A stretch of DNA of 64,000 nt from NCBI GenBank assembly GCA_963575745.1, contig CAUYUJ010000114.1:1116001-1180000 (forward strand), read 5' to 3'. The notes beneath the pieces are model-generated. The model was not told the origin of the DNA, made no database searches, and worked only from the letters and a program-made list of their open reading frames with translations. This document shows positions 14,729-63,324 of the stretch, in pieces. A program made the translations under genes and the position numbers. The number at the start of each line of letters is the position of its first letter. The stretch's first letter is position 1. The DNA comes from Prorocentrum cordatum. Lineage: Eukaryota.

Positions 14729-14769
<41 letters not shown>

Positions 14770-22639: not shown

Positions 22640-22830
22640 TTAAGTCGGGCGTGTCCCCCTACAGGGGGATCTTCGACGAAAAACAAAAAATACACCAAGC
22701 ATAGTCCAAAAAGGTCAAAAATGCTCAAAAAATAATCCCCAAGCTATTTTTGCATTATTGTTTGATTATGTTTGGGGTATTTTTTATTTTTCGTCGAATA
22801 TCCCCCTGTAGGGGGACATGCCCGACTTAA
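22640..22830. mobile_element. MITE family with TIR TTAAGTCGGGC(C/G)TGTCCCCCTACAGGGGGA and 8-bp TSD; other short copies at 27205-27440, 42785-42971, 45641-45801
   Basis: TSDs: CTCTGGCG (22632/22831), GAGTAACG/GAGTAGCG (27197/27441), CGCGAGCC (42777/42972), CCATATCG/GCCTATCG (45633/45802). An orphan right end lies near 22335-22363. Confidence 0.92.
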
Positions 22831-27170: not shown

Positions 27171-30100
27171 TCCTGCGGACCCCCGGGAGCGTCCATGAGT
27201 AACGTTAAGTCGGGCCTGTCCCTCTGCAGGAGGAGTATGCAAGAATAGTCCAAAAATAGTATGGGCACGATCTCTTGCATATTTTTTGCTAGCTTTGAGT
27301 ATCTTTGACTATTTTTAGATTTTTCCTCGAAGATCAATTTTTACAAATTTTGAATGTTGTATGACCATTCTTGTATCTTGTTTGACTATGTTAAAATTTG
27401 TCCTCGAAGATCCCCCTGTAGGGGGACAGGCCCGATTTAAGAGTAGCGGCGCTCTCGCGTTCGGCAGCGGCCCAGCGGGCCGAGGCCCCGGTCGGGTCCC
27501 CATAGGCCCGCGCCCCGGGGGACTTTTCGGGCAGGTTGCGGGTTCTCGGCGACAGTGGCGCAGGGAGCACCACCTCCTCCTCCTCCTCCTCCTCCTCCTC
27601 CTTCTCCTTCTCCTCCTCCTCATCCCCCTCCTCCTCCTCTTCCTCCTCCTCCTTCTCCTCCTTCTTCTTCTCCTCCTCCTCGGATTCTCGGCGACGGTGG
27701 CGGATTCTCGGCGACAGTGGCGCAGTGGGAAGCTCACGAAGTGGCGACGGTTGCGTTGCTGGCAGCCCGGGTGCATGCTGAGGGTGAGGATTCGAAGAGC
27801 ACAGGAGGAGGAGGCCGAGAGGAAGCAGGGGGAGGGAAGATCGAGGCAGCAGCGCTCTGCTCAGCGCGAGGACCCAACACAGAAGGGATGCGACACGAAT
27901 GGAAGCCACGGCCTCGCGCACCCTCGGGGGGGAAACAGAACAGTCATTCAACACACACTGCCGGAAATATGATTCAACCATCGACGCGGCGGCGCCGAGG
28001 ACCCTTCGTACAGCAGGGGGTACATGGACGCCCTGGCCGCCATGGGCCGCGCGCCGCTGGCGGCGCTGCCGCCGCCCAGCCCCGTGCCGTCCACCTCGGC
28101 GACGCTGCCGCACCCGCCCACGCCGGGGCCAGCGCCGCCGGGGCCCGCTCCGCGCCGCCCCGCGCCCACCGCCGCCGCCGCCCGCCCGCCGCCGCCGAGG
28201 GACCACAGGCAGGCCCAGGATGAGGACGGACCCTTCCAGAGCGTCACGCCCGATGCAGCCGCCAAGCTCGCTGGTTCTCGGGTGTTCCCGTCTCGTCTTC
28301 CTCCGAGCGCGTCCTCACCCGACATATTCGTCGCAGGGGTCCACGCGGACGAGAACGCAGGACGGGCGCCAGCACGAGCAGGAACTCCTCTGCAGGCACA
28401 GCCTGGGGCGCTTGAGCTCCTCGTCGAACTTTCTGTTGGCGCGTGCGATGCTGCGATGCTGGCGGGTATGCGCTCGGAGCCAAATAATTTCGTATGAAAC
28501 TCAGGGTGTCCTCACTCGGTAAAGCGAGAGCGCGCGGGCGCGAGCCCCTCAGCCCGCAGCCAGCCACGACCGGCGATTCGTCGGAGAAGCACCAAGAAAG
28601 CCTCTGGCCAGGGCCACCTCGGGCAGCCCCCGGACGCTCCCCCCGCGCCCCCCGCCTTTGCGTCTCGCAGAAAGAGAATCAGGAGCGAAAGAAGGACGTA
28701 CATGTACATGAATCCACGCTGGTTTCGAGAGTTCGCATTGCGCGAATGTTCGTATCGCGCGGCAGGTCTCGCGGGTCAAGGGGCCGTGTTCATGTACATA
28801 GCTGGGCGCGTACGTCCTTTGTGGGCTCCCTGGCCGGGCTGATCTCGGTGTCCGGGCCGAATATGCGGCTCGGCCGAGGTCGGCCTGTGGCCGAGGCCAG
28901 CCGGCCGAGACCAGCTGGCCGAGTTCAGCCTGACCGAGTTCGGCCTGGCCGAGTCTCTCGCCCATTTACGGAACGGCAAGGTTTCTATAGGTTCCAGGTT
29001 TCTGGAGCCCGGCACGTGCAAGAGCGGCGTGCCGAGGAAACGGCCACATTAGGACATATACGGCTCTTGGGGGTAGGATTCAACATCGGCGCCGGTAGAT
29101 CAGTGGTCGGAAACGGGCCTCATTGGGCACGCTCCCGCTTTCCGCCTCAGCCTGTCGAGTCCAGCTTAATCCGGGGCTCGCATGCAGCTCAATCTGGCGG
29201 CTAGGTGGCTCCTCTTCCCAATCCGGCTCGAGAGGTTGTCATCGTTATTGCGACGACCTCCCAGGATTCGTTACCCGAAACTCACCACCCACCAAACCAC
29301 CCCAACCCGACCCGAAGGCCTCAATTTGCCCTCCATTTCCAGTTGGGGGGGGTCGTGGAACACTGACAAAAAACATATGGAACCCGTACCCCTCCAACCC
29401 GAAATTGGGGTCTTCGGGTTGGGTTGGGGTGGTCTGGTAGGTAGTCAGAAACAGCAGGAGCCCTCGGCCCCGTCTTCTAAGGCCGCGCGTCTCGGGCCAG
29501 ACCAGATCCCTGAGGCCCCTGGGGCCCGAGGCCGGGCGAAACAACGTGCGGAGCGAGAGAGTGCACCGCCCAGCTCCTCGGGACGTCCCGAGACTGGCGC
29601 CGCGCATTATCGCAGCACGTCGGAAAATCGCACCCGCGCGCGCTTGGCAGCACCCGCACGATCCGAGGAGACACGGAGACCATCGCCACGGGGGGGACCC
29701 GCCCCCAGCCGGCGGCACGCCTGAGCGTCGTCCGGCGCCTGGTGACTCGTGCGTGCCACCCACCGCCAAAGCAGGGCCGCCTATAAAACAGGGCTAGGAT
29801 CGGGATAAATCGCTCCAGAGCGCTCTCAGAGCGTTCCGGAACGCTCTGGAGCGGCCGCGGCGCCCAATGCATCCTCCCAACCCGCCGATTCTCGGAGATT
29901 TCGAGTTATCCCGATCCGATTTTGTCCCGATCTTCGTGTCGTGTTAGCCTACGATCCGAGCAGGACCGCCTAAGCGATCCGCTTCGGTGCAATTTGATTC
30001 GACCTGGTCCAGTTCACCATCAGCGGCCGGGCCAGCCGGAGCCACGCGCGGCGCCCCGCTTCTCGGTGCGGCTGGGGACGAGTCGCTGGCGATCCGATCC

Positions 30101-30437: not shown

Positions 30438-30829
30438 GAATGATAATAATAGTAATACCAGTAATAATAATAACAATAATAACCTCATGAAGCGATGAAG
30501 GATCCCCCCGGGGTTATCATTAGCACCGCCCCGTAATCAAATAATTATTCTGGGGGGTTTTCGCCGAACGATATAATTAGCACCGCGCACTTGAAAGGAA
30601 AGTAAATAATTCCTGCGTCCCGCCTCGGATGGCATCCCAATTGGAATTGTAATCAGAATAAGAATGCGAATGAAAATACGAATAAGAACAATAATAAGAA
30701 TAAGGCGAGTGTCACAGGTACTGCAGACACCGTAACTGTTACTGCTACCGTGATGACGATGAAACCTGATGGCGTGATGCTACTGTTACTGCTACCGTGA
30801 TGCTACTGTTACCGTGATGCTAGGCGATT

Positions 30830-33800
30830 TGTGAGGGTGCTCAGGCGATTTGGACAATTCTGTTAAGCAATGTGAGGATGTCTCAAGCGATTTGGCTAAT
30901 TCTAAGAAGAAATGTGAGGATGTATCAGGCGATTTGTGCCATTTTACTAAGATGTGTGAGGATGTTTCAAGCGATTTCTTCTTCTTCCTTCTCTACTCTT
31001 TGTTCTGATCCGCTTGTTTTTTCCGATGAGGTTTCTATTGAAAATCCTTTAGAGAAATACGTTTTTTTCGGCCGTCGTAGGGGGTGGTCCACCCGAGGGT
31101 ATCGCCCCCACCCCGCACCGTGGCGCTATCTTAGCACCCGGCCCAAAAAAAATCCGTATGACAGCCAGATCGTGCTCGTCGTCGCCGAAGATACGAAGAT
31201 ACGAACGAAGATAAGAAGAATAAGAAGCAGAAAAGAACGAATAACACAACTAATGAGAAGCAGAATACGACTGATTGTAAGAATACGGATAATAAACATC
31301 GTTTTCCTCATGATCCTCATGGAATCGAGGTACTCCGAACAAAGCAGCGACCCTCGCAGACTACGAATGAGGATACGACTAAAACGAACGAAGATACGAA
31401 CGAAGACTAAGAAGAAATGTGAGGATGTCTCAGGGGATTTGGCCAATTCGATTAAGACATGTGAGGATGTCTCCAGCGATTTGGCCAACTCTGATAAGAA
31501 ATGTGAGGGTGCTCAGGCGATTTGGACAATTCTGTTAAGCAGTGTGAGGATGTCTCAAACGATTTGGCTAATTCTAGACGCTTCGCGTATCCCCACCAGC
31601 CCGTCCAGAAACGACGCCCAGGCGAGTAGAGGGTCGTCCTGAGGGGCTTTCCGGTGTCTTGGGTGCCTCGGGGGGGCCTCTTTGGGCCGTTTGGGATCCT
31701 CTTGGGGGCCTCCTGGGGGCCTCTTGGGGCCATCTTGGGGCCATCTTGGGGCCTCTTGGTGCCTCCTGGGCGCTTCTTGGGGCCATCTTGGAGGAAATCG
31801 ATCAAAGAAGAGGGGAGCTTCAATTAGCGCTGCCCCCTCAGAAGGCCAAAATGGGGCCAAAACCTTAGTAAAATCAATGATTCTGGCTTCAAAGAAGAGG
31901 GGAGCTTTAATTAGCGCTGCCCCCTCAGAAGGCCAAAATGGGGCCAACACCTTAGTAACATCAATGATTTTGGCTTCAAAGAAGAGAGGAGCTGTAATTA
32001 GCCCTGCCCCCTCAGAAGGCCAAAATGGGGCCAAAACCATAGTAAAATCAATGATTTTGGCTTCCTCGCCGAGGCCGTTTTGGACGCTCTGACCGCTCCC
32101 CGCCCCTCCTGCCCAGGTCAGTGGGGAGGGGGTAGGGGGAGGGGTAAACCCTTCCCCGAAGGGGAAGAGGGAGGGGTGGAAGAGGAAACGCTCTAAACCA
32201 CCGACGCCCAGAGGGCTGGTGGGATTCTAAGAAGAAATGCGAGGATGTCTCAGGCGATTTGTGCCATTTTACTAAGATGTGTGAGGATGTTTCAAGCGAT
32301 TTCCTCCTCTTCCTTCTCTACTCTTTGTTCTGATCCGCTTGTTTTTCCGATGAGGTTTCTATTGAACATTTTTTAGAGAAATGCGTTGTTTTCGGCCGTC
32401 GTAGGGGGTGGTCCACCCGAGGGTATCGCCCCCACCCCGCACCGTGGCGTTATCTTAGCACCCGGCCAAAAAATATCCGTGCGACAGCCAGGTCGTGCTC
32501 GTCGTCGCCGTAATCGTCGGAAGACACCAATGGTAGATAGTTACTCCTGACAACCATGACATGGCTGAGAGGCCCGAGGAACAAATGATGTTTCAGGCGA
32601 TTTGGCAAATGTTACTAAGAAATGCGAGGATGTCTCAGGCGAGTTTGCCAATTCTACTAACAAATGCGAGGATGTCTTAGGCGACGTGGCCAATTCTACA
32701 AAACATATGAGGCGCCACTGCTTCTTTCTGAGTACCTGGACTCCTGCCAGTACCTGGACTACTGCCTCCGAAGGCCTCTGAGAATAAGAGCTCCCTGGGC
32801 CCTGAGAGGCCCTGGACCCCGATGGGGGAGGAGGTCAGGCGGATCGGCAGAAGGCCTCTGAGAATAAGAGCTCCCTGGGCCCTGAGAGGCCCTGGCCACT
32901 GAGGGAAGGCGAGGGGCCATTGGCTGAAGGCATCTCCAGGGCCCTGCTATGAGAACCCCTTGCGATACGTCTTGGACCGTCTTGGATTATTCTGGAACCT
33001 CTCGGCCATCTTGGATTCTTGGATTATTCTGAGTCTCCCAGGGCCGCGCAGGAATCGTGAGGCTCCCTTAGTAGAAGTAAGAGTTGGAGTAGGAGTAGGA
33101 GGAGAGGGAGGAGGAGTTGGAGTAGGAGTAGGAGTATAGGAGTAGGAGTAGGAGTAGGAGTAGGAATACGAATAGGAGTACGAGTACGAGTACACGAGTA
33201 GGCCAATTGTCTTAAGAATTGCGAGGATGTCTCAGGCGATTTGGCAAATTCTTATAAAACTGCGAGGATGTCTCAGGCGATGTGGCCAATGCTATTATGA
33301 CATGTGAGGATGTCTGAAGCGAGTTGGCCAATTCTATTAAGAAATGTGAGGATGTCTCAGGCGATTTGGCTAGTTATTTCTATTAAGAAATGTAAGGATG
33401 TCTCAGGCGATGTGGCCAATTCTACAAAGAAATGTGAGGATGGCTCAGACGAGTTGGCCAATTCTATTTAGAAATATGAGGATGTCTCATGCCAGTTGGC
33501 TAATTCGGCTAAGACATGTGAGGATGTCCCAGGCGATTTGGCAAAATCTACACAGAAATATGAGAATGCCTGATGTTAGCTTGCCAACGTTATTAAGAAA
33601 TGTAAGGATGCCTCAGGCGAGTTGGCCAAGTCTGTTAAGACATGTGAGGATGTCTCAGGCGATTTGGCAAATGCTGATAAGAATTGCGAGGATGTCTCAG
33701 GCGATGTGGCCAATTCTAATTAAAAAATGTAAGGATGTCTCTGGCGAATTGGCCAAGTCTGTTAAGACATGTGAGGATGTCTCAGGCGATTTGGCAAATG

Positions 33801-34700
33801 CTGATAAGAATTGCGAGGATGTCTCAGGCTATTTGGCAAGTTCTAATTGGAAATGTGAGGACGTCTCTAGCGATTTGGCCAATCCTATCTGAAAACTGAA
33901 CGCTTGAGCTCTGAAAGGGCGGCAGGCACAGGCATGAACTTTCCTGAGCACTGAAAGGTTGCCCTAATATTGCCAGGATTGTGAAAAGGCGAGCTGGGGG
34001 GGAAGGAGGGAGAGGGGGAAGGAGGAGGAGAAGGATTAAGCAATGTGAGGATGTCTCAAGCGATGTGGCAAATTCTGCTAAGAAATGTGAGGATGTCTCA
34101 GGCGATTTAATTTTTTCTACTAAGAAATGTAAGGATGTCTCAGGCGATTTGGCCAATTCTAATAAGAAATGGGAGGATGCCTCAAGCGATTTTGACAATT
34201 CTATTTAGAAATATGAGGATGTCTCAGGGAATTTAGCCAATTCTTTTTTTAAGAAATGTGAGGATGTCTGAGGCGATTTAGCAATTTCTATTAAGACATG
34301 TGCGGACGTCTCAGGCGATTTGGCCAATTCTATAAAGAAATGTGAGGGCGTCGCAAGCAATTTGGCAAGTTCTATTTGGAAATGCGACGACGTCTCAAGC
34401 GATTTGGCCACTCCTATTAAGAAATGCGTTGATGTCTCAGGCGATTTTGGCAATTGCATTAAGATATGTGAGGATTTCTCAAGCGATTTGGCCAACTTTC
34501 GTAAGACATGTGAGGATGTCTCAAGCTATTTGGCCAATTCTCGTACGAAATGCGAGGATGTCTCAGGCGATTTGGCAAATTCTGCTAAGAAATATGAGGA
34601 TGTCTTAGGCGATTTGGCCAAGTCTATTAAGACATGTGAGGATGTCTCAGGCGATTTGGCCAATTTTATTAAGAAATGCGAGGATGTCTCAGGCGATGTG
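30830..34700. repeat. Interrupted ~42-bp minisatellite TGTGAGGATGTCTCAGGCGATTTGGCCAATTCTATTAAGAAA
   Basis: Dozens of contiguous diverged units, densest at 33200-33890 and 34040-34700. Confidence 0.92.
31573..32225. mobile_element. Helentron/DINE-1-like non-autonomous element; a 4.6-kb copy with the same ends spans 4662-9275
   Basis: Left end tctagacgcttcgcgt (mini-hairpin) plus atccccaccagccc; right end gggctggtgggat (inverted partner). No TSD; inserted in T/T. The empty site is visible in the paralogous segment at 30892-30910. Confidence 0.7.
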
Positions 34701-41700: not shown

Positions 41701-44700
41701 CCTGCTTCAGCCTCAGCCTCAGTCTGCCTTCAGCCTCGGCCTCAGCCTCAGCCTGCCTCAGCCTCAGTCTGCATGCAGCCTCGGCCTCAGCCTCAGCCTG
41801 CCTCAGCCTGAGCCTGCCTCAGCCTCAGCCTCAGCCTCAGCCTCAGCCTGCCTCAGCCTCAGCCTGCCTCAGCCTCAGCCTCAGCCTGCCTCAGCCTCAG
41901 CCTCAGCCTGCTTCAGCCTCAGCCTCAGTATGCCTGCAGCCTCAGCCTCAGCCTCAGCTGGCCTCAGCCTCAGTCTGCCTGCAGCCTCAGCATCAGCCTC
42001 AGCCTGCCTCAGCTTGAGCCTGCTTCAGCCTCAGCCTCAGCCTGCCTCAGCCTCAGCCTCAGCCTGCTTCAGCCTCAGCCTCAGTATGCCTTCAGCCTCA
42101 GCCTCTGCCTCAGCCTGCCTCAGCCTCAGCCTGCCTCAGCCTCAGCATCAGCCTGCCTCAGCATTCAAAATGTGGCCCGGGAGTGGAGTTTTGGGGATTT
42201 CGAAGAATACGAAGTGGCCTACAGTTGGCTCCGGGCTTTCAAAATCATGCCCGGGAATGGAGTTCTGGGAGCTCGAAGAGCACGAAGGGGCCTACAGTTG
42301 GCTCCGGGCATTCAGAATGTGGCCCGGGAGTAGAGTTCTGGGACCTCGAAGACCACGAAGTGGCCTACAGTTGGCTCCGGGTTTTCAAAATCATGCCCGG
42401 GAATGGAGTTCTGGGAGCTCGAAGAGCACGAAGGGGCCTACAGTTGGCTCCGGGCATTCAGAATGTGGCCCGGGAATGGAGTTCTGGGACCTCGAAGACC
42501 ACGAATGTGTAACTGTTTGTTTAAAGCGACTTCCGCGGATTCTCCCCGGATCCTGCCCGGACCCCTCCTTGGGGAAACCTATTAGTCTTCGCTGCTTGGT
42601 AAAAACAATCGTCGCGAATCCCCCTGTAGGGGGACAGGCCCGACTTAACTCTGGGCCTCCCGGGCGGGGTCCGAGCGGCGTCCGCAGGGTCGCCCCGCCT
42701 CGGCGGTGCGGCTCGACCGCGGGGGCGCGCGGTGTTCCACGCTGGCGGCGCCGAGGCAGCGCCGACGGCGACGCGGCGCGAGCCTTATGTCGGGCGTGTC
42801 CCCCATACACGGGGATTTTCGACGAAAAAAAAAAACAAAAATGCTCCAAAAAGGTGAGCAAATACTTACAAAATAGTCCCCAGACTATTGTTTGATCATT
42901 TTAAAAACTATTTGGGGGTATTTTTTATTTTTCGTCGAACATCCCCCTGTAGGGGGACAGGCCCGACTTAACGCGAGCCTCCGGCCCCCTGCTGTCTGCT
43001 CGGACTCTGAGGGGTCCGAATTTATAGGGGTCGGAGGCTTGGGCCGCATCCGCGATGTCGGCAGTGTCTCGGCGACGCCGGCACCGGAAAAAGGAGGCTC
43101 TGGTCGGTGCCCTGGGGGCGGGCACAGGTGGACACTGGGGCGAGAATCGGTGATCCTCAGAGTCCAGGCGACCCCCCTCTGCTCGGACCCCCTCTTGGGG
43201 GGCCTGCGAGGAAGTCGTTGTGCTGCTGAACCGCACGAGGCTCGGGGGGCAGCAACTCGCAGAAGAAAAAGAAGAAGCAGCTGCATCTCAGCTGCAAAAC
43301 CAAGTCATACCACGCGCCTCCTCGTCAAGCGGCCTGACCAGTACAGGCCGCAGTGTGGCATCGCTTGGTATCTCTTGGAAGCGAGGGTGGTCAAACGCGA
43401 GGTGGGTTTGTTTTCCCCCTAGCATCTGCGCGAGGGAAAGGACTTGGGATCGCTCGGACGTGTGCATTTTTCCTCCGGCGAGGACCATCGAGGAGCGTCC
43501 TTGACCATTTGGCGAAAAAGCCTCACACGAAGCCGAACAAAAAACACAGGAAATGGACGTCTGAGCGAGGGAGAGGAGCGGGGTCGACCGCGCGGACACT
43601 CGCTCGTGAGCTTCCCCCGCTAGGGTGGCGCGCCGGCGCCCTCCAAGACCAGCACGGCTGCCGGCATCCTCGCCCGCACCGCGCGGGCCGCCGCTGCTGG
43701 CCTCGTGTCCTTGGCATTGCTCGGACGTGTGCATTTGTTAGGGGGCCACATGCGAACCCTACCCCTGCCCCTCACGATTTCTGAGGGGGAGGGTGGGGTT
43801 CACTTCGCTCGGGAGCTCCCGAACGAAGTGACCCCCCCCTCCGCCTCAGAAATCGTGGGGGGTAGGGGTGGGGTTCACATGTGGCCTCCTATTTTTCCTT
43901 CGGCGAAGACCATCGAGGAGCAGCCTTGATCATTTGGCCAAAAACAAAACACGCACGGAACCGAAAAAAACACGGGGAATGGACGTCCGAGCGATGGCCT
44001 CGTGTCAGCACAGCGCGTATCATCGATCTCGGGATCTTCACCAGCATAGCGTAGCTCCCCGGCGCCGGCATCCTAGTCGGCACACCCAGGAGCACCGACG
44101 CCAGCATCCTCGCCGGCGCAACGCGGATCACCGACACCAGCATCGACCCGCCCACGCTCACGCCGACGCCAACGCTCACACGCAAGCCCACTCCCACACC
44201 CGCGCCCACGCCCACACCCACGCCCACGCCCAAGCCCACGCCCACGACCACGCCCACGCCCACGCCAACGCTCACACGCAAGCCCACACCCGCGCCCACC
44301 CACACCCACACCCAAGCCGACGCCCACACCCGCGCCCACGCCCACGACCACGCCCACGCTGAAGGCCCCCTTGCGCACCACCTCTGGAGTCGAGGGAGTG
44401 CCACGGCTGCCGCGCCCAAGGGGCCTGAGACGGATAGGGGAACCACCCCCACGCGCCCCCTCTGGTGTCGAGGGAGTGCCACGTCTGCCACGCCTTGGGA
44501 TCCTGAACTGAAAAAATGTGAGGTCCGTGCGGATTTCTCTGGTCGGCTCAGGAAGGAGGATGGCGGTTCGAAGTTCGAGGTTGTCGGACTTGCTCGTCGG
44601 TTCTCCGCGGCTTTCCAGCCTCGGGGTGCGTTTCCGCAGTTGCGCCTCACCGAGAGGCGTCCTGGGGCGCCCGGATCGCCCTGAACGGCGGCCAAGGACC

Positions 44701-47700
44701 CGAGCTGGGACCCGAAAGCCAGACGACGAGGATCACTTGTGGGACTGGCTCAGGAGCAGCGGCTCGAAGAATCACAAACATCAGAGGTACTCGCGGGTTT
44801 CTTGGGGCGGCGCTTCGGCGCCGATCCAAGTTTATGTTTTGCGCCGTTCATTCCTGTTGCGACACGGGGGGCAGAGGATTGGGATACGAGGGTGGAGGAT
44901 CGACGTTCGCTTTGTAGACGTCTTTGTTGATCGTCCTGGGGCGCCCTCGCGGCCGCGGCTGGATTCGCATCGAAATTCTGGTCAGGACGCGTCCCAGGAG
45001 AGGTCTCGAGGCGTCGATTGCTGACTTCTGATAAGGGGAAGTGACTGGGGGGGGACTGGCTCAGGGGTCTGCACGGACGAGATGGGCACGGAAAGATTGG
45101 GTACGATGTCCAACAGCAGTTCCTGTTCATTTTGAACAGGACTCGTTGTCCGCGCCGCCGCGGCCTGTGCCCAGTCGAGACAGAAGGCCGCCCGCCCAAC
45201 AGCGGCCGCGGTATGTTTGGGACAACATTTGTCGTTGGGCAATGTACCCATTCTTTCCGCGCGTATTTCGGGTGTCCAAAATTAACGGGCGAAGAACGGT
45301 ACAAAATAAACTTTTTCGCTGTCGCGGGCGCCTGTCCCAGGGCGGCTGGAAAGTTTATACCCTTACGGTGGCACCGTAGGGGTATAAACTTTCCAGCCGC
45401 CCAGGGACAGGCGCACCCGACAGCGAAAAAGTTTATGTTATACCGTTCTTCGCCCGTTAACAAAAGGGGGGGCAGCATCGAGCCCCCACCGCACGATCAT
45501 CGCCGATGCGGGGCCCGATAGCCCACCCCGCCCAGGAGCCCGCGGCTTCGCCGGGGGCCTTGTCGCCGGTCTGTCGGCGAGGCGTCGCTGGTTCGGGCTC
45601 GAGGGTCCCCCCGCCCCACGAGCCCGTCCCTCCCATATCGTGAAGTCGGGCCTGTGCCCCCACAGGAGGGATGTTCAGAAATAGTCAAATAATGCTCTGG
45701 GGATGATTTTTAAACAGTTTTTGACAATTTTTTCGTATTTTGTGGGTATTTGTTTCGCTTTCGTCCAAAATCCGATTGTAGGGGGGACACGCCCGACCTA
45801 AGCCTATCGTCTCCCCCCAGAGGCTCTTCAGACACCTGCCCCAGAACCAGAAGAGCCACGTGGACCTGGCGAAGGCGTGCCAGCACGAGAGGTTTAAGGC
45901 CGGGGACGTGATCGTGAGGCATCGCAGGAGAGACAACTGCATTGGCTTCTCGAGGGTTCGCGCAGGTGTCATGGATCTGTGCTTTCTCCCCTCTGCGGCG
46001 CCGCCCCTGGCGCGCTCTTCGCGGCAGGCGGGAGGGTCGAGTGCTGGTCCAAGACATCCGCGCGGGCCCTAAAACAATCGTGCTCTTGCCGCTTGGCACT
46101 CTTCTGAGGCAGGGAGACGCCGGCAATTTCTTTCTCGCGATCTTGGAGGGGAAGGTCTGTCTGGGGTCCGAAAAGGGGGGATTATCCCAATCTGTGCTTA
46201 GGGTGCGAACCTAGATGGATGCTCACATCTCCTTCTTCCAATGGAGCGATACTCCTCTAACCTCACCCCTGCCCCCTTCCCCAACTTGACGTCGCCCCGA
46301 GAAGGTGAGCGTAACAGTGGACGGCAAGAAGGTTGCGACTTGGCGCGACGGGGCGGACTTCGGGGAGCAGTCCCTCCTGCACGATGAGCCGCGGCAGGCG
46401 ACGCTGCAGGCCGTCACTGACGTCTCTGCCGTCAAGATCACCCGGGAAAGGTTTTGGAAGCTGGGGCTGAACCGCAAGTTGCAGTTCAAGGGCCGCAAGG
46501 CGATCAGGGCTGCGGCAGCGACCACACGTGACAGGTGGAAGGCAGAAATTCAACGGTCATGACCGAGAGTTCTCGTCGATGCCGATCGCGGTCATGGTCC
46601 ATGCCGGCCGTCGCCGATTCGTGAGGATGATCCACGCATCACCTGCGACCAAGATGGATGATTTCTTGCCCTCCAACAGGGAACCCACTCCAGGAGGAGG
46701 AGGAGGAGGAGGAGAGGAGGAGGAGGAGGAGGAGGAGGAGGGAGGAGGGAGGAGGAGGGAGGAGGAGGGAGGAGGAGGGAGGAGGAGGGAGGAGGAGGAG
46801 GAGGGAGGAGGAGGGAGAAGGCAGGAGGAGGGATTAATTACCAAGATCGACGTTGTCTTGCCCTCCAACAGGGAGCCCACGCCGAAGACCCCGAGAGAGC
46901 GGCACCTCATCGCCGAGGCGCTGCTGGCGAACGAGAACCTGCAGATGCTGGTGACCCTGGACAAGGTCAGGGGGGGAAAAAGCACAGACACAATTCATCG
47001 GCGATTCCCAGAAAATATAGGAAAATATGGGAAGTGGGGGGGAAGACAAAAAAAACCAGAAAATATGGGAAAATGTGGGGAACTATTTTTATTTGTGTGT
47101 ATTTATTTGTGTGTCCCAGTTCCCCTTCATAAGGAGCGTGTGCAGAAGATGGTGGACGTAGCCTGGAAGGAGGTGGTCGAGCAGGGCGTCGACGTGATGG
47201 TGGAGGGTGACCTCGCCGACTGCATGTACGTTGTGCAGGCGGGCGCCTTCCGGATGGAGAGCACGAGGAAGGACGACTTCGGTGCCCACACCATCGTGCG
47301 CGAGCGCTCGGAGGCCCCCAACCAAGACCCCCACCGCGAGCACTCGAAGGCCTCCTCCGACCTCGTACGCGAGCATTCTGTGGCCTCGGCGGAGTCCGCG
47401 GACACCGGTCCACCACCAGGACACACATCACATGCGCGTCGCACCGATTTCACGCCAAAGTCTAGGGGCTCGTCTGCCTCAGGCCGCATGCCGCGCTACG
47501 ACGAGGTCATCGCCGCTGGCGGGAGCTTCGGGGAGCTCGCGCTGCTCTACAGCACCCCACGGTTTGCCACAGCACGCGCTATAGAGGCTTCTGTACTGTG
47601 GGGAATAAACCGGAAGCACTTCAGGGACATACTTATGGGAGTCCATGAGGAAAAGCTCCAGAGTCATGTGGCGTACCTCAGGCAAGTTGGGTCCCTCAGC

Positions 47701-50700
47701 ACTCTGCAGGAAGAGGAGCTCAAAGAGCTCGCGAAGGCTTTGAACGTCAACACGTTCCAGAAGGGCGAGTTGATCGTTCAGCAAGGCCTTCCGTCTACCA
47801 GTTTGCACATCGTCTACGAGGGGCAGGTGGCGGTGATCATTGATGGCAAGGAGACGTGCCGCCTGCGAGCTCATCCCAGGCGGCGAGTGTGGCTTCCAGT
47901 CTCTGCGAGCTGGTGCTGTGCCGGCGCTGGGTGCGCGCCTCCACCGCAGACTTCTCACGTCGTGGAGGAGCAGGCGCTCCTCGGCGGCTACCCGTGCCGC
48001 ACGGACGTCAGGGTGGTGTCGTCATCGGCCCGGACCCTCTCGCTTCTTCGCGACAGCTTCGAGATGCTGGTGGGTACCCTGGACGATCTGGAAAACGCCA
48101 GGGCGGTGCGGCGGAACCACCGCACCTCGATCCGCACTGCCGTGCACCGCGCCAAGACGGCCAGACTGCTCAACTCCGCACCCGAGAGGCAGGCGTACCG
48201 CGAGAAGGTCACCCACATGCGCGACCTCACCAAGGTCAGGCCCCTCGGCAGCGGGCAGTTCGGGAATGTGGAGCTCTGGCAGCACAGGGACGGCAGGAGG
48301 TTCGCGATGAAGATCCTGAGCAAGAGCCACATACGCAGGCTGGGCGCGGAGCAGAGCATCATCAATGAGAAGAATTTGATGCTCATGACGAGCTCGCCGT
48401 TCCTAGTGCGGCTCTTTGAGGCGTACAGCACGCCGAACGCCCTCTACCTGCTCCTGGAGTTCGCCGCCGGGGGGGAGCTGCACACGGTCTACAACCGCAG
48501 GCAAGGGGCAACGCTGTCAGAGGGGATAAGCCCAGGGGGGGTTGCAGCGACCCCCAATGGCCCGATGGGGGCCGGATAGCCCACCCCGCCCAGGAGTTTG
48601 CGGGCTTGCTATCGGGGGGGCCTCTCGCCGGTCAAGCGGCGGTGTATCGCCGATTCCAGGTCGACGGTGTCCCCCAATATGAGCCAGTCCCCCCCCTAGC
48701 AGCTAGGCGCACCAAGTCGGAAATCTGCTTGCCGGCAGGTGCCCCACGGAAATTCCCTCTCCCCCGACGGTCCCAGGCCCCCACGGAGGCCCCGGGGCAC
48801 TCTCTAAGACCCTCAAAGATCGACGAAGAACGCGCCCAAATATTCCTTCGATGGCAGAATTTCTTGTGGCAGTGCGGCCCAACGGTTCAGAAACAATCTG
48901 GGAGGGGTCGCAGCGGACCATTGGGAAGTGGACGATGAAAAACACAATCCGGGTTCGTCGTCGTCGCCGTCGAGGCCGCCAGACCGTTGCCAGCGAGCTG
49001 GACGTGGAGTCGGAGGTTGGGGGTGAGATCACAGTGAAACGGAGAGCCCCCCACCGGGAAATCGGTTTCGCTTTCGTGTTCGTGTCGTGCGTGCGGGCTA
49101 TGCGAAGCTGCGCAGGCTGGCCAGGGGGGGACTGTCCCGCCAGTCGTCGCTCGGCTTCGGCTTCCTTCGCCTTGCTTGCCCTGGCTCGGCTTTGGCTCGC
49201 TTTCCCTCGCTGGGGCGCGGGTGTCCCGGGTGTCCCACCGTGGTACCTGGTGGTGTCCAGTGGTGTCTTTGGTGTCTCGTAGTGAGATGGCGTGCGAGAC
49301 CGATAGTGAGATCGAGTGAGATCGATCGTTGGATCGGTAGATGGATCGATAGATAGAAAGTGAGATCAATAGATAAATCGATCGTGAGATCGATTGTGGG
49401 ATCGATTGACTGACGGAAAGCGATAGTGGGATCGATCGTGAGATCAAACGATCGTGAGATCGATAGTGAGATCGATGGATAGTGAGATCGATCGTGAGAT
49501 GGGTCGTGGGATCGATGGTGAGATCAAACGATCGTGAGATCGATAGTGAGATCGATGGATAGTGAGATCGATCGTGAGATGGGTCGTGGGATCGATGGTG
49601 AGATCGAATGTTCCTCTGATGGAAAGAGCGCGCGGGCAAATAAGTGCTACCTGGTTCCGTTGGTTGCCCCGATCCTTTGGTGTCTCGTAGTGACATCGAT
49701 AGTGAGATCGATAGTGCAATCGAATATGATATCGATCGTGATATCGAATGTGTTTCTTAACGGAAGGGCGTGCGGGTAAAGACATGCCACCTGGTTTCAT
49801 TGGTTGCCCCGATCCTGTGGTACCGGATGTTCTTCGAAGGGAAAGAGCGCGCGAGCAAATGAATACCACATGGTTCAGCTGGTTGCCCCGATCATTTGGT
49901 GTCTCGTAGTGACATCGAATGTGAGATCGATACTGGAATTGAGTGAGAGGTCATCGTGAAATCGAATGTTCCTCTAAGGGACAGCGCGCGCGGGCAAACT
50001 CGTGCCAACTAGTTTCGCTGGCTGCCCCGATCCTTTTGATGTTTCGTATCCATAGTTGGACTGGTAGTGGTATCGTATCGATAGTGAGAGCGATTGTCAG
50101 ACCATATGCTCTTCTAAACCAAACAGCGCGCGGCGGACCTTGTGAATGCTACCTGTTTCCGTTGGTTCTCTCAATGAGTGTTGATGGATGCCCCGGTAGA
50201 TAAATGGAGTAACATATTGTCCAGCACGTTCGTAGTATACCAAAATCAATGACACATGCCTGCTGCGTTGCTCCCCTCAGCAGGGGCTTCTACGGCAGCG
50301 AGAAGCACGCAAAGTTCTACGCCGCGGGGGTGGTGCTTGCCTTCGAGCACCTGCACGACCTCCACATCATCCACCGCGATTTGAAGCCCGAGAACGTGTT
50401 GCTGGACTCGGAGGGGCGGCCCAAACTCGCCGACCTGGGCCTCGCCAAGGTCACCAGCGGCACGGCCCAGACGTTCTGCGGCACGCCGACGTACCTGGCG
50501 CCAGAGGTCAGAGGAGGACAAGTTGAGACAACGATGGTTGACCCCCCCCGTCGCCGCGGCTGGACAGAGCTCGGACAGTTTACGCATGTGGACAGTGGAA
50601 GAGGCCCGGGGATCGATTTTGAGCCGCCGTTATCTCAATTCGCCCTGCTCCGAAGAGGTCATCCGGGGCACTGGTTACACGCACTCTGCCGACTGGTGGT

Positions 50701-51968
50701 CCCTCGGGGTGCTGATCTACGAGCTCCTCTGCGGCACGACCCCGTTCGAGGCCGTCAGCGAGCTGAAGATCTGGAGGAAGGTCGTCGCCGGCGTGGAGGG
50801 CACGAACTTCCCCGAGCCCTGCCAGGGCGACCCTGGGGACTTGATCAGGGCGCTCTTGTGCCTGGAGCCCTCCCAGAGGATGCCCGTGCTGCCCGCCGGC
50901 CTGGAGGACCTGCAGCGCCACCGGTGGTATCGGGGCTTCGACTGGGAGCCCTTCCGCGACCGGGCTCTGAGGGCGCCGTACCGGCCGAAGGAGATCAGGC
51001 AGGCCTGTTGCTGAAGATGAGCCGATCCAGAGAGATCGCCGCCACGAAAGAGCAGGGTCCTGAGGTGAGCAAAAACAACATGAACACAAATTTTCGGAGG
51101 TCCGCGCGGACCACCGAGAGTAAACGTTCCTGCAGTTGTCTGCTCCTCCAGATTTGGACCATCCTTCGCCATGGGGGCCGGGTCCTGAGGTGATGCTCTT
51201 GCATTTGTTTCAGGTGAATGCGCGCAGCGCCAAGGCGAGAACCACATTCTTAGAACGGCCCGCCCTCCATCCGTGAAGCTGTTGCGAACTTTGCGACGAG
51301 AGTGCGCGGCGCTGGGGCGAGAGGCACATTTTGAAAACGGCACGCCCCCTATCCGTTAAACTCTCGTAGAATTCGGGACGGATGTTCGCGGCGCTGCGGC
51401 GGGAGGTCACATGTTGAAAAGAAACCGCCCTCCGCCCGTGAACCTCTGGCAACAGTTGTATGACGAATGTGCGCGGCGCTACGGCGGGAGGCCACATGTT
51501 GGAAAGGATCTGCCCGCCCGTCCGTGAAGCTATTCCAATTTGTGGGTTCCAGAATCAGAATTGAGGAAGAGGTCTCAGCCCGGCTCGCCCTCACGACACG
51601 TCTCGAGATGTGGCAGGGAGAAGTTATTGATATAAGGAACAGGAATGGAGGAGGAGGAGGAGGAGGAGGAGGGGGAGGAGGAGGAGGAGGCGGAGGAGGA
51701 GGAGGAGGTGGAGGACGAGGAGGTCGCCCCGCCGCCGCCTCAGGAGAGGGACTTCGACTCGGGGTTCAACAGCGCGGAGCGGGCGGCACCCTCGGCCGAC
51801 GAGCCCTACAGGGACGACGGCTCGGCGTGGGACAGGAGCTTCGCCACCGTGGTGGACGACGGGGCGTGCGCGGGCGCCGGCTCGCTCCACGGGGACGGCT
51901 CCCCCGGGCTGCCGCAGCTCTTCCGCCGCGGCTCCCGGCGGAGCGGCAGCTTCCTCGCGCGGCCGTAG
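35784..51968 (+). CDS. Cyclic-nucleotide-dependent Ser/Thr kinase with PKG architecture (3 CNB domains plus AGC kinase domain). Predicted exons: 35784-~35876 (tentative), 45821-45918, 46109-46154, 46305-46534, 46872-46965, 47134-47886, 47950-48500, 50284-50506, 50658-51002, 51744-51968
   Basis: Splicing keeps the frame: [94 protein letters not shown], and an AGC tail [12 protein letters not shown]. The first exon MGNC.. (acylation-type N-terminus) is linked only by inference. The 63-nt intron at 47887-47949 is uncertain. Confidence 0.9.
36266..37692. repeat. (CTCAGC)n hexamer satellite with CCTG interruptions; continues at 41606-42162
   Basis: Read directly from the sequence; split by the retroelement. 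Confidence 0.97.
37693..41605 (+). mobile_element. 5'-truncated, internally deleted non-LTR retroelement (RT C-terminal part, CCHC, RNase H, C-terminal Cys motifs) inside a (CTCAGC)n array
   Basis: RALVDDVGL (RT domain 5-like) and [35 protein letters not shown]; RNase H motifs YTDGSG..GPLP..QTVGRAE..TDLK..WTPAH..GNAWA; CRCRGC and YCCSKC. Three different frames (ORFs ending 38820, 39719, 41305) indicate decay. Confidence 0.8.
42165..42510. repeat. ~73-bp tandem repeat (alternating A/B units)
   Basis: cccggga.tggagttctggga.ctcgaaga.cacgaag.ggcctacagttggctccggg about 4.5 times. Confidence 0.85.
45282..45460. mobile_element. Near-perfect 179-bp hairpin MITE, 5-bp TSD CAAAA
   Basis: ttaacgggcgaagaacggta..tacggtg g caccgta..taccgttcttcgcccgttaa; CAAAA at 45277-81 and 45461-65. 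Confidence 0.9.
49290..49760. repeat. GATC-rich GTGAGATCGAT(A/C) tandem tract inside a kinase intron
   Basis: ~12-bp units, plus an internal ~87-bp duplication near 49434-49607. Confidence 0.85.
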
Positions 51969-53149
51969 GAGCAGCGCGGCGCCGAGTTGCGGCGGCCGCG
52001 CCCTGCGCAGGGTGCCGGCGGAGAGCGCGCGGGCGCGCTCTTGCCTCGGAGGCTCACCCGTCGCGGAGCTGCGCTCGGCGGTGGGAGGTGCAGCAGGGGC
52101 GTCCTGGTGCCCAAAGGCTGCGTGGTCCAGGCCGGGCGAAGAGAGCGGAAGCTGTGCCATCATGGAAGCGCGTTTCGATGATGGTGGCCCCGTTCACTCG
52201 CTCTCCGCAGAGTCCGAGGGAAAAAGTCGGGTTGCCCGTGTCCCTCGTTCACAGCAGTGTCTCTTCCCGACGGGTTGGGATGGCTACTTCCCTCCGCAGG
52301 GGGAGTGACGCTCGGCAAAAATCATCGTGGCGAAGGACCTAACCTTATGCAGTTGTGAGTACCGCCCTGTTGTATCGCCTTCAGTGGAGCTCTCTGGGCC
52401 ACGAAACGTGTGAGAGGTGTGCAGAATGGGCCTGGGGGCGCATGCGGGCCCTGCCACTGGGGCATTCGGTGGAGCTCCCTTCGAGGCCACGACTGTGAGG
52501 AGTGTCCCGAATTAGGCCCGGGGGCACACAAAAGCTGTGCCACTGGGGCCTAAGGTGGGTCTCCCAATTGGGCCACAAAAGGTGAGGGGTGAGCCGAAAC
52601 GGACTGGGGACTTGGAGCCGCATGCGATCCAACTCTCCCCTTGAGAGCTTCGGTGCAGCTCCCGCCGCGCACGCGAACGAGTGCGGCCAGGAACTTTGGC
52701 TCAGCGTGTCGCGCCGCCGATTCTGGCCCACCACGCTTTGGCGCGACACGCCATTCACGTCCCAGTCCCCAAGCGTCAACGTCTCGAGCTTTTCTCAGCC
52801 TTGCGCCCCGCGAAGCGGAGCGACACGCCATCCGCTTGCAGGGCACAGCATGTCGCTTGGGCCGCTGCCGCGAAGCGCTGAGAACAAGTTCCTGGCCGTA
52901 ACATGTAAGCATCCTGACCTTCTCCTGGCATCGTTCGGTCGTGTGCTTTGTTTTCTCGGCGAGAACCATCGAGGACCATCCTGGACCATCGAGCAACAAA
53001 AAAAACACGCACGACACCGAACAACGCACGGGAAATGGACGTCCGAGCGACGGCAAGTGCCTTCTGATTTGGAATATCAGGCGGGCTGGCTTTCCGCACG
53101 AGGGGGGTGGAAAGCTTGTTTCTTTTCCATCGATTCCCCAGACTTCTCC

Positions 53150-54513: not shown

Positions 54514-57500
54514 GCTCAAGCACATATCGGCCCGAGCGCTTTCATTTTGTCAGCGGACTCGGTCCGAGGCTTCTCATTTTCCCGCAGTGCTTGAGGAACA
54601 ACAGGCGCCATACCCTTGCTGTTAGGACTTCCTGTGGTAGGATTTCCTGTTGACCAAGAGAAGTTCACAGTCATGTCTCCTGGTTGGCTCTGGAGCACGT
54701 GCAAGAAGTGCGGTACGCACGATTACAACGATGTGCTCACCCAAGCCGATTGCAAGTGCAGGAAATGCTCGAGCAAGGTACGAGTGCACAAGAGCAAGCC
54801 AGACAAGAGTTCTCCAGCGGCTCTTGAGGGGGCCTTGGCGGCACCGCAGCTAGTCGAGGACCTGTTGGCCCAGGCGATCAAGCTCTCATCCGACACTGAG
54901 GTGCGGAAGAACCTTCAGGAGCAGGCGCAGCGCGTGGTCGCCACGCCGTCGCCAGCTCCTGTGACGGGGCTGCCGCCTGCCGAGGCGGTCCGCCGCGCCG
55001 AAGGCGCTTGGAAGGATGCGAAGCTCAAGTTCGATCAAGCGTCCGCTCAGATTCGCCGTTGTCGCGAGAACCCCGAGCGGGTGACCAAGGAAGAGGAGAC
55101 CTTGCGGCAGCTGGCGGTGGCGGAGCTCACCACAAAGGCAGCCGCGGCGGCGCTGGCCAAGGAGGTGGGCATCACCACTCAGGCCGGCGCCAGTGCTGAG
55201 TCCCAGTACCCCGCGAAGATTGGGTTCACCTGGGATGGGGTTTTCTTCGAGTCCCTGGACAGCGTGGAGCGCGAGGAGCACGAGCGCACTGCGTTGAGGC
55301 AGTTTGAGAAGGATCTGAAGGCTACACGCGAGACGTTGGCAGCCAAGTCGTCCGACATCGCGCAATGGAGCCAGCGCGTCAGCGAACTCAAGAAGCAGAT
55401 CGAGGAGCGCACGGCCAAGAAGCGCAAGACGGCTGCGGATGGTGCCGAGGGCTAGGCGGCCCAGGGCAAGGGGACAGGAGCTCCCGATGCCGAGGCCCAG
55501 GCGGCGTCGGCTCCAGCGGCAGCGGAGAAGCCCGTCGCGGCGTCGCAGGCGCAGGCTGCGTCGGCCGTGCCGTCGCCCACGCCCTCGGACCCAGAGGTTC
55601 TGAAAGAGACGGGGCGCATCAAGCAGGCCAGGCAGGCGGCTGAGGCAGCTGCCAGCCAGGCCGTGGGCGCGTCGTCGACTGGTGCCGCTGCGGGCGCTGC
55701 CCCTGAGGCGCGCCTCGCGTCGAGGGTCCACCGACGCCCTCGGCGTTCGCGAGCAACCACCCGGCGGCGCCGGCTCAGGCGTAGGGGCCTGGCGGCGCCG
55801 CGGCTCAGGAGGGCGGCGACGACGACGAGTGCCGCATGTTCTTCGCTAACATCACGGCGCTGGGCAACTCGCCCTGGAAGTATATGTTGAGCAAAGAGCA
55901 CCTGGCTCGATGTCAGTTCATGGGGTTAGTCGAGACGCGCGCCACGGCGAAGGGCACCACTCGAGACGTGTGGGCGCGCAAGGCACAGCAGTTGCACTGG
56001 CGCTTTGTGGACAACGGGGCACGTCCGACAGGCAGGGCCACAACTTCAGCAGGTCAAGTTCGAGCGCGTGAAGGAGGCGTGCTTTTTCTTGCACGTAACT
56101 ATCGGCACGTTCATAGGTTTGCTGACAAACCTCGAGATCTACCTAGTTTCTGTTGTCCTGGTGGCGTTGACTTCGACGGCTTCATGGCGGTCGCCATGCA
56201 CCGGCGGGGCTTCGCTTTCACCCTCATCATCAACTGCGGGCGTTGCAGCGTTGGCTTCGGCGGGGACAACGTCGCGCGCATGGCGAGGCTGGGAGCCTCT
56301 GCTCGGCGCCTACAACTTCCGCGGCGCATCGCGGGCGACTGGGACATTGACGTTGGTTTAATGTTCAAGTCGAGGCGCCCGCAGAAGATCGGGGGCGCGC
56401 GGCGAGGGCTAGCGTCGCTCGCGCGCGCGTGAGTAGCGAAGGACAGCCCCGCATCGATTACCCGCAACGGCTTCGCCCAACGCCGCCGGCCCCCTGTCTC
56501 GGATAGTGGGAGACGCACAAGCTGCGTCGCGAGGTCTGGGCGCCGCCGCGAAGCAGCGTCGGGGCCTGTTTGTTCTTCGACCCTGACCCTGCGGATCTGC
56601 GTCACGGCTGCCACCGAATTGCAAAAATGTGGCAAATCCTTTTTGTTTTTGGACCCTGACCTTGCCGATCTGCGTGAGGGGCGCCACCGAATTTCAGAAA
56701 CGTAGCAAATCCTTTATATTTGTTGACCCTGACCCTGCGGATCTGAGCGAGGGGCGCTGCCGAATTTTAGAAATGCGGCATATCGCCGTTGTGCTTTTGG
56801 GCCCTGACCCTGCCGATCTGCGCGCGGGGTGCCACCGAATTTTAGGAGCGCGGCAACTCCCTTGCTTTTGGGCCCTGGCCCTGCCGATCTGCTTGAGGGG
56901 CGCCACCGAATACGAGAAATGCTGCAAACCCATTATTGTTTTGAACCCTGGCCCCGCCGATCTGCGCGAGGTTTGCCACCGACCGTCGAAAATGCGGCGA
57001 ATCCCCCCTTGGTTTTTTGACCCTGGCCCCGCCGATCCGCGCGTGAGGTGCCACCGAATGTCAAACATGCGACGAATCCTTTTGCGTTTTTGGGCCCTGG
57101 CCCCGCCGATCTGCTTGGGGGGCGCCACCGAATCTCAGAAATGCGGCCAATCCCTTGCTTTTGGACCCTGGCCCCGCCGACCTGCGTGAGGGGCGTCCAT
57201 TTTATCCGCCCCGGCAATTCAGCGCGCGTTCAGGGCGCGGTGAGAATGCCCGCCTGCCCCCCGCCCCCCTCCCTCGCGCGGCCCACCAATGAGGAACAGC
57301 GAGCAGTAAGAAGCAGAACTGCAACAGCAAGCAGCAAGAAGCAGAACTGCAACAGCGCAAACTGGAAGCTGCAACTGGCACAGGAAACTGCGAACCTCAG
57401 GCCTACAGCCTGGCGGCCCCGCAAGGGGGCCGGCGGATATAGTTGCCGGCCCAGCGTGTCTGCCATATATAAAATCAGTGGAGGCGGTCGAGACCGCCCC

Positions 57501-62170: not shown

Positions 62171-63324
62171 ATCCTTCTCCTCCTCCTCCTGCTCCTCCTC
62201 CTCCTGCTTGCTACTCCTCCTCCTCCTGCTCCTCCTCCTCCTCCTCCTGCTTGCTCCTCCTCCTCCTGCTCCTCATCCTCCTCCTCCGGAACCGGTGCCC
62301 CCCTCATGTTCTCCCTCATGCGGCCAGAGCAGCGGCGGCCACAGCAGCGAGGGTGCGAGAGGCGGGGACCAGCAGAGACAACGGCGGCCTTCCCCTGGCG
62401 TTTCGCCGTCCTTTTTGGCCTTCCTGGGGGTTTCTCGTCGCCCTCCTCGTCCTCCTAGTCCTCCTCCTCTTCCTCCTGCTCCGCCTCCTCCTCCCCCTCC
62501 GCCGCCTCCTCCTCCGCCTCCTCCTCCTTCTCATCCTCCTTCTGCTTCTTCTCCTTCTCCTCCTCCTCCTCCTGCTTCTCCTGCTTTTCCTCCTCCTCCT
62601 CCTCCTCCTCCTCCTCCTCCCTGGGAGAGGTCCAGGGACCGATTTTGAGCGGATTTGGGCCGAGCGAGCAAGCCGCCACCGTTGTCTCAACTGGTCTTCC
62701 GAGTTGATCGCGTGCTCAGAGAGGGCGAGATGACCGAAGGGTCAGTGTTGTTGCCATGGTGCTCTGACTTGCAGTCGGTTGTTCATTTCCTGGTTTTGTT
62801 GAAGAAGGATCTGCATAGACATAAAGTTCCAACGGTCCGCACGGATTTCTGGGATCTTCGTTGTAACCATTGGCGCGCTCGCGCTCGCCAGGGAGGGTGC
62901 ATATGCCTTGTTTCTCTGGCGGCGCCTCCAATACTGCCCCTGGCGCGCCCCGCAGGCCAGGGCGGGGGTGCACGTTTTTGTTCATCCCGCCGCGCTTTGT
63001 CCATTTCGCGAGCGGGGTCGACCCCCCGACCCTCCCCTGCGCCCGCCCTGGCAGGTTCCCCCAGCCGCGCCCCAGCCGAGACGACGAGCACCCCCGGGAG
63101 CGCGCCCACGAGCCCCGGCCCGTCGGGCCACGATCCGTTTCGGCCCACGACGCGAGCCCAGAGAGATCCGATGCGTTGCAAAAAAACATAAAAAAACACG
63201 TTTTTTTTTGTTTTTGTTGTTGCAATCCTTCGTTTTATTGCAATCCTTCTGACTTTCAGAACGAGCCCCGCAGAAGTCCTGACCCTTTTCCTCGGGGCTG
63301 ACTCTGCATCCCGAGTCGCCCTTC

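Follow-up and report, generated by a model that had tools for sequence, protein, structure and literature searches.

The stretch of DNA analysed here (the window) covers 64 kb of contig CAUYUJ010000114.1 of the bloom-forming dinoflagellate Prorocentrum cordatum, with a G+C content of ~60%. On its forward (+) strand, at 43211–51968, lies the 3' part of a gene with three cyclic-nucleotide-binding (cNMP-binding) domains and an AGC protein kinase domain, which by sequence is a cGMP/cAMP-dependent-type protein kinase gene. This annotation follows from identity to the NCBI protein P0001 and from the colinearity of homologues. P0001 ("unnamed protein product, partial [Prorocentrum cordatum]", 880 aa) carries Pfam domains PF00027 (cNMP-binding) and PF00069 (protein kinase), and the largest exon of the locus (47134–48498) is 100% identical to it. 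Eight introns of the gene are known, and at least four of them (introns 3, 4, 5 and 6) were most probably created by the insertion of small non-autonomous transposons with terminal inverted repeats (TIRs), i.e., miniature inverted-repeat transposable elements (MITEs) or introners.

The exons of the kinase gene lie at 43211–43239, 45823–45918, 46109–46154, 46305–46534, 46872–46965, 47134–48500, 50284–50506, 50658–50990 and 51744–51968 (+), the last including the stop codon. An earlier note on this DNA had proposed seven introns, which we number 1–7, and excision of its seven G[T/C]...AG intervals yields a single open frame; the spliced translation is identical to P0001 over introns 1–6. The P0001 model adds an upstream exon ending at 43239 and thereby an eighth intron, 43240–45822 with GC-AG ends, which was missing from that list and which we number 0. 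A candidate pseudo-exon encoding LNRT at ~45132 resembles the true upstream exon at the peptide level only and was taken as a chance likeness. Homologues from transcript-sized contigs (P0025, P0026 and P0002–P0004) are colinear across all junctions. Among RNA runs, poly-A runs included, the best carry 0.40–0.43 of the sampled words from 45700–52100, where 0.40 is expected from exons only, and none of the 20 listed runs carries half or more of them. We infer splicing at the exact junctions from the gene model, the homologue colinearity and this exon-sized share in RNA assemblies. Within the third cNMP-binding domain, 47860–47960 encodes an insertion of ~35 residues rich in Cys, Pro and Arg, also found in the homologue P0025 (66% identical) and missing from the more distant P0002–P0004; judged by these homologues, it is lineage-specific coding sequence, not an overlooked intron.

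All eight introns of the annotated model are bracketed by direct repeats of 4–8 bp that contain AGG. In order from intron 0 to intron 7, these are GAGGCTC (7 bp), TGAGGCA (7 bp), GAAGGT (6 bp), ACAGG (5 bp), AAGG (4 bp, or 5 with one mismatch), GCAGG (5 bp), AGAGGTCA (8 bp) and, as annotated, AGGAGA (6 bp). The seven pairs of 5-bp repeats reported by the earlier note are all present at its coordinates, five of them exact (TGAGG, GAAGG, ACAGG, GCAGG and AGAGG) and two matching at 4/5 bases (CAAGG/TAAGG at intron 4, and GCAGG/TCAGG at intron 7 in the form given there). The dinoflagellate splice consensus accounts for an AGG core but not for an extension of the repeat past AGG. The repeats could in principle be the AG|G...AG|G consensus plus chance, with the inverted repeats arising by chance too: AGG is common to all junctions here, and 79.7% of P. 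cordatum acceptors are reported with AGG (PMC10666404, Table 2, in the available text). We compared true junctions with derangements, which join each 5' junction of the annotated eight introns to a 3' junction taken from a different intron. The mean extension past AGG is 3.0 bases in the observed introns and 0.6 in the cross-pairs, and the observed total is reached in 0/14,833 derangements of the eight annotated introns and in 0/1,854 derangements of the seven introns first proposed. The two boundaries match at position −4 in 7/8 introns, at −5 in 5/8 and at −6 in 2/8, compared with cross-pair rates of 0.25, 0.18 and 0.30. The left edge of the repeat is sharp at five bases, with no contiguous extension past −5 in any of the eight introns, and to the right of AGG the repeats extend by 0–3 bases. 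Matches at −5 and −4 no commoner than the AG|G consensus gives had been put forward as an observation that would speak against transposition; the matches found far exceed the consensus. With the anchored TIR of intron 6 and the second copies that carry duplications of their own (see below), these results make consensus and chance a highly improbable explanation.

The four introns attributed to transposition share a common anatomy. For TIR scores, the 30 nt that follow the left repeat were aligned with the reverse-complemented 30 nt that precede the right repeat, and 6,000 pairs drawn at random from the window served as the null. Intron 6 (50507–50657, +; GT-AG, 151 bp) contains a 146-bp MITE at 50508–50653 with the target-site duplication (TSD) AGAGG at 50503–50507 and 50654–50658. 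Its 26-nt TIR is complementary at 20/26 positions and anchored at the first base, with a score of 22 and a null frequency of ~0.0003. Intron 3 (46535–46871, +; GT-AG, 337 bp) contains a 140-bp MITE at 46536–46675 with the TSD ACAGG at 46531–46535 and 46676–46680, and the TIR of this 140-bp core (TGGAAGGC-AGAAAT vs TGGAGGGCAAGAAAT) scores 16 with a null frequency of ~0.0013. The right arm of the inverted repeat described earlier for intron 3, at 46661–46675, is internal to the annotated intron. Beyond the MITE and its TSD, the intron continues with a (GGA)n microsatellite of ~150 bp and then a 41-bp duplicate at 46840–46880, in which the end of the element is followed by ACAGG and 10 exon nt; both copies and the microsatellite between them lie within 46648–46880. 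Two candidate acceptors result, 46679 and 46871, and the annotated model takes the distal one, 46871, inside the duplicate. Intron 5 (48501–50283, +; GC-AG, 1783 bp) has the TSD GCAGG and an element at 48502–50279 that begins with C and ends with A, with a gapped TIR of ~13 nt (score 15, 2-nt offset, null frequency ~0.0065, borderline); its interior consists of satellite arrays and a repeat in common with intron 0, and four open reading frames (ORFs) of at least 140 aa within it have no Pfam match. In introns 3, 5 and 6, the TIRs sit directly inside the 5-bp NNAGG repeat. The terminal helices of the predicted RNA folds of introns 3 and 6 join both intron ends, and these folds are no more stable than those of shuffled sequences (z-scores −1.16 and −0.86; not significant).

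Intron 4 (46966–47133, +; GT-AG, 168 bp) contains a 163-bp element at 46967–47129 flanked by CAAGG/TAAGG, and its assignment draws on a second copy elsewhere in the window. This copy, at 18048–18220 (+; element 18053–18215, 163 bp), is ~85% identical to the intron element and has the exact TSD ATACA/ATACA; the similarity begins and ends exactly at the element ends, at the ATACA duplication. A non-genic copy with a 5-bp duplication other than AGG had been predicted, and the intron-4 element provides it. The intron-6 element also has a second copy, truncated at its 5' end, at 62622–62702 (+), which ends in ...TCCGA and is recognised by a pair of colinear matches (E 1.6e-4 and 0.002); a (CTC)n run stands in place of its left part and makes the TSD unreadable. 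The elements of introns 3, 4 and 6 (140, 163 and 146 bp) are short and non-coding, as MITEs are. In introns 3, 4, 5 and 6, both ends of the intron fall at the termini of a transposon plus a TSD, as in introners, whereas introns 0, 1, 2 and 7 have the repeat only.

An alternative reading is that the introns are old and that MITEs landed in them later. This is clearly what happened to two MITEs nested in intron 0 (families F2 and F4, described below), and probably to a palindrome in intron 1 that resembles family F5. In introns 3 (in its original 140-bp form), 4 and 6, by contrast, the element and one TSD copy account for every intron base, and no older intron is left. We thus consider it unlikely that the introns as a group are old and were only later invaded.

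For introns 3–6, we infer the insertion event itself and the transposase behind it, and the proposed course of events is as follows. A transposase would cut the target with a 5-bp stagger, and at a site with NNAGG on the sense strand, the duplication would produce ...NNAG|G-element-NNAG|G.... The donor would then combine the final G of the left copy with the first base of the element, so that an initial T gives GT (introns 3, 4 and 6) and an initial C gives GC (intron 5), while the acceptor would be the AG of the right copy. Splicing would take out the element together with exactly one copy of the target, and the original coding sequence would be restored. Because elements of the T...A type read alike on both strands, a GT donor would be available in either orientation of insertion.

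Several observations weigh against this interpretation of introns 3–6. P0001 is a prediction, the pipeline behind it was made to accept GT/GC/GA-AG introns, and its agreement with the junctions is not fully independent; gene models of P. cordatum were built by transcript mapping with GT, GC and GA donors permitted (PMC10666404, in the available text). The TIR of intron 4 is weak (score 12, not significant) and its TSD matches at 4/5 bases, while intron 5 is a 1.8-kb composite whose TIR is gapped and of borderline significance. For introns 3 and 5, the 64-kb window contains no further copy. A 20-nt block conserved in both intron-4 copies gave 0 matches in a metagenome scan, and a scan with a two-arm pattern from the intron 6 TIR gave 11 loci, none alike beyond the pattern and about as many as expected by chance. 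The repeats of introns 0, 1, 2, 7 and 6 (7, 7, 6 and 6–8 bp) exceed what a 5-bp TSD would give on average. Finally, no transposase or autonomous partner with the same TIRs was found in the window, where 96/165 ORFs of at least 140 aa were scanned. The matches in this ORF scan were carbamoyl-phosphate synthase-type domains, the UAA transporter family and three hits that were sub-threshold only. An ORF at 55785–56429 (+) contains FFANITALGNSPWKYMLSKEHLARCQFMGLVETR and has no Pfam match at E ≤ 0.001. We take it to resemble the start of the AP-endonuclease domain of a non-LTR retrotransposon, a likeness that Pfam does not confirm.

The other four introns carry a boundary repeat and no element termini, and they may stem from insertions that are older or in a different frame, or have another origin. 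The 30-nt end alignment against the 6,000-pair null found no significant TIR in introns 0, 1, 2 and 7, nor in intron 4, and a second copy of the whole element was not found in the window for introns 1, 2 and 7. Intron 0 (43240–45822, +; GC-AG, 2583 bp), with GAGGCTC at 43237–43243 and 45820–45826, is a composite with nested MITEs at 43739–43891 and 45282–45460. Intron 1 (45919–46108, +; GC-AG, 190 bp), bounded by the 7-bp TGAGGCA, lacks a terminal TIR and contains an internal palindrome (~45955–46068) related to family F5. Intron 2 (46155–46304, +; GT-AG, 150 bp), bounded by the 6-bp GAAGGT, lacks a TIR and has no second copy in the window; its alignment as a decayed member of family F1 was unconvincing. 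For introns 1, 2 and 7, whose repeats measure 7, 6 and 6 (or 4) bp, the proposal of 5-bp-TSD insertion at NNAGG did not hold up as it did for introns 3, 4, 5 and 6, where TIRs and/or copies bear it out. The proposed T...A ends likewise apply to four of the seven introns in the original frame, while intron 5 reads C...A and introns 1 and 7 read C...C.

Intron 7 differs from the others in its donor. The annotated intron (50991–51743, +) is GA-AG, has AGGAGA at 50989–50994 and 51742–51747 and lacks a TIR, whereas the form first proposed is GC-AG from 51003 with GCAGG/TCAGG. That repeat is indeed present with a 4/5 match; the three residues that the donor at 51003 would add (IRQ) are found in 0/6 aligned homologues. 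The donor is thus probably GA at 50991, and the GC at 51003 is probably misplaced. The intron includes a tandem repeat also present at 18.4–18.9 kb and, like intron 1, holds fragments related to family F5.

How introns 0, 1, 2 and 7 acquired their repeats can be explained without a 5-bp-duplicating transposon, either by repair of staggered double-strand breaks with filler DNA or by decayed elements with a TSD of another length or frame. The lack of a TIR and of a second copy of the whole intron in the window fits such an origin, and so does the extension of the repeats by 1–3 bases to the right of AGG, unlike in introns 3–5. Another frame would have a precedent in the dinoflagellate Polarella, whose TSDs of 3, 4, 5 and 8 nt occur with several splice frames per class in the available text of the preprint (bioRxiv 10.1101/2020.10.14.339549). 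On the other hand, sizes of 150–190 bp match those of MITEs, introns 1 and 7 contain the F5 fragments, and the repeat has its edge at −5/−4, as it does in the introns with TIRs. On balance, an origin of this kind for these four introns is possible and rather doubtful.

Further MITE families in the window were collected by an unbiased search for long inverted repeats followed by inspection by eye. F1 has two copies that align to each other, one at 12578–12783 (+; element 12583–12778, 196 bp) with a T...A TIR of ~45 nt and the TSD TCATC, located in a coding exon of a transporter gene, and the other at 63320–63525 (+; element 63325–63520) with the TSD CCTTC. The latter was considered as a minus-strand intron, CCTTC being GAAGG on that strand, and was rejected for want of a convincing reading frame in its flanks. 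F2 occurs at 22032–22197 (+; element 22037–22192, TAGGGGGCC...) with the TSD GCCAC, and at 43739–43891 (+) within intron 0 with flanks TTTGT/TTTTT. F3 lies at 20559–21080 (+; element 20564–21075, 512 bp, TCGCCG...CGTCGA) with the TSD CCATC. F4, at 45277–45465 (+; element 45282–45460, TTAACGGG...CCCGTTAA) within intron 0, is a near-perfect 179-bp palindrome with arms of ~89 nt and the TSD CAAAA; as its TTAA termini are flanked by CAAAA, a TTAA duplication (piggyBac-like) and a 5-bp duplication are indistinguishable here. F5 is found at 16973–17098 (+; element 16978–17093, TCCGAGGTCCGCG...) with flanks AGTTG/AGTTT. A further family with TTAAGTCGGGC termini, also T...A-ended, has 8-bp TSDs; its copies are at 42777–42979 (+; element 42785–42971, TSD CGCGAGCC), at 27205–27440 (flanks GAGTAACG/GAGTAGCG) and at 22640–22830 (TSD CTCTGGCG). 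An end fragment of this family also lies at ~45759–45805, 19 nt upstream of the intron 0 acceptor.

These families bear on the broadest claim of the earlier note, that a single transposase with 5-bp duplications, mobilising many unrelated T...A MITE families, gave rise to all seven (or eight) introns. The window does contain nine families with 5-bp TSDs, eight of them T...A-ended, and among 13 copies (the four intron elements, the intron-4 copy and F1–F5), 12 begin with T and all 13 end with A. That the left edge of the repeat is never contiguous past −5 in the eight introns is also in line with one transposase. However, introns 0, 1, 2 and 7 lack a TIR and have repeats of 7, 7, 6 and 6 bp, the likely donor of intron 7 shifts the frame of its repeat (AGGAGA), and no autonomous element was seen in the window. 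Moreover, the coexisting T...A family has three copies with 8-bp TSDs; therefore, more than one insertion chemistry has acted in the window. The sharing of a 5-bp TSD by several unrelated T...A families thus fits the window, while a single chemistry for all of them is not established. That every intron of the gene stems from one such transposase seems to us a tentative proposition at best, and we are similarly hesitant about a single 5-bp-TSD transposase system that mobilises many unrelated T...A MITE families across P. cordatum. If it is real, one chemistry would have given rise to a large share of the GT introns of the species and to its repeated intron boundary, and the system would mirror, with an initial T, class 12 of Polarella, whose elements begin with C.

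Among the eight copies that do not bound introns, NNAGG on the + strand occurs in 0/8, and one (CCTTC) corresponds to GAAGG on the − strand. The F1 copy at 12578–12783 splits a coding exon of the transporter gene at 12253–16813 (+), which is of the UAA nucleotide-sugar type by Pfam, and the homologue P0028 (94% identical, from a 1,247-nt contig) reads ...RSCNLIGNVLLGR... uninterrupted over the insertion point. The element plus one TSD amounts to 201 nt, in frame and stop-free, and with the TSD TCATC no G[TCA]...AG interval exists that could remove it precisely. This same-class MITE at a non-AGG exon site is a miss of the kind that the NNAGG rule predicts and serves as a natural control. By homologue mapping, the transporter gene has two more interruptions (~12871–15077 and 15663–16753) without GY-AG ends, and this gene copy may be disrupted or retro-copied.

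The phenomenon itself is already described, and nothing in this locus is new in principle. In Polarella glacialis, 15 classes of introner-like elements with TSDs of 3, 4, 5 and 8 nt have been reported, and class 12 duplicates 5 nt of its target, read as NNAGG or NAGGH (Roy, Gozashti et al., bioRxiv 10.1101/2020.10.14.339549); the available text of this preprint names no transposon superfamily. The question of whether a multi-family rule was already on record, raised in the earlier note, is thus answered by class 12 of this preprint. Our elements share with class 12 the 5-nt NNAGG/NAGGH duplication (exact in introns 3, 5 and 6, and 4/5 in intron 4), and many classes per genome occur in Polarella as well. 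In contrast, class 12 elements are C-initial with mostly GC donors, whereas introns 3, 4 and 6 are T-initial with GT donors and only intron 5 begins with C, and the host is Prorocentrum rather than a member of Suessiales. The P. cordatum elements would thus work like class 12, a likeness of anatomy, not of sequence, that does not show membership of the class.

The boundary repeats also correspond to a known dinoflagellate splice-site feature. Mendez et al. (2015) described the identically repeated intron boundary (IRIB), in which 2–9 bp around the 3' splice site repeat bases of the 5' site; the repeat contains GG, usually AGG, and its remainder is unique to each intron (PMC5032977). All eight introns here, with repeats of 4–8 bp that contain GG or AGG and would be retained once in the mRNA, fit this pattern, which the available text of the IRIB paper treats as a splice-site feature, without a transposon explanation. 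For P. cordatum itself, Dougan et al. (2023) reported introner elements in 2.4% of introns, recognised by inverted repeats of 8–20 nt and direct repeats of 3–5 nt within 30 nt of the intron ends and read as non-autonomous DNA transposons (PMC10666404). Species and concept are the same as in our study, whereas the available text of that paper gives a genome-wide percentage only, without a TSD rule, families, termini or a derivation of the splice sites. In the kinase gene, by comparison, the TIRs of 3/8 introns are significant or borderline and the TSD of a fourth is recognised from its copy, which suggests that the strict pattern search behind the 2.4% undercounts transposon-derived introns. 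Introner elements of Amoebophrya likewise combine direct repeats of 3–5 nt over the exon/intron boundary with inverted repeats forming a hairpin that joins the ends (Farhat et al. 2021, PMC7789003). Direct repeats over the boundary and inverted repeats are thus common to both systems, whereas the Amoebophrya introns are, in the available text, largely non-canonical with highly variable boundaries and those described here are GT/GC/GA-AG. By title or abstract, none of the studies found lists TSD rules or families of Prorocentrum; Gozashti et al. (2025; PMC12130899) do not use the word Prorocentrum in their main text, and their datasets, like the bioRxiv supplements, may bear on this.

Within one gene of a bloom-forming dinoflagellate, the locus illustrates on a small scale how introns arise by transposition. 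Its merits are intact insertion scars, a sister copy with a non-AGG duplication and a natural negative control, and it extends the findings in Polarella and Symbiodinium to Prorocentrum. It also provides a lead towards a transposase class with a 5-bp duplication and T...A ends in Prorocentrum.

Satellite arrays occupy 30800–34700 and 36200–37600/41640–42140 of the window, and naive repeat statistics are overwhelmed by both. The unit of one measures ~126–170 bp and includes the palindromic motif ...TAAGACATG TGAGG ATGTCTCA..., and the other is a short tandem repeat of the GCCTCAGCCTG type. The excess of "5-bp repeat + TIR" combinations over shuffles (85 vs 9–15) was not used, as it is inflated by the tandem repeat at 36–37.5 kb, and a scan restricted to NNAGG was swamped by satellites at 31–35 kb and 36–42 kb and still recovered introns 3 and 6. 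At the start of the window, 1–1911 (+) is a long open exon encoding domains of the carbamoyl-phosphate synthase large chain (pre-ATP-grasp, ATP-binding and MGS-like), which extends past the window start.

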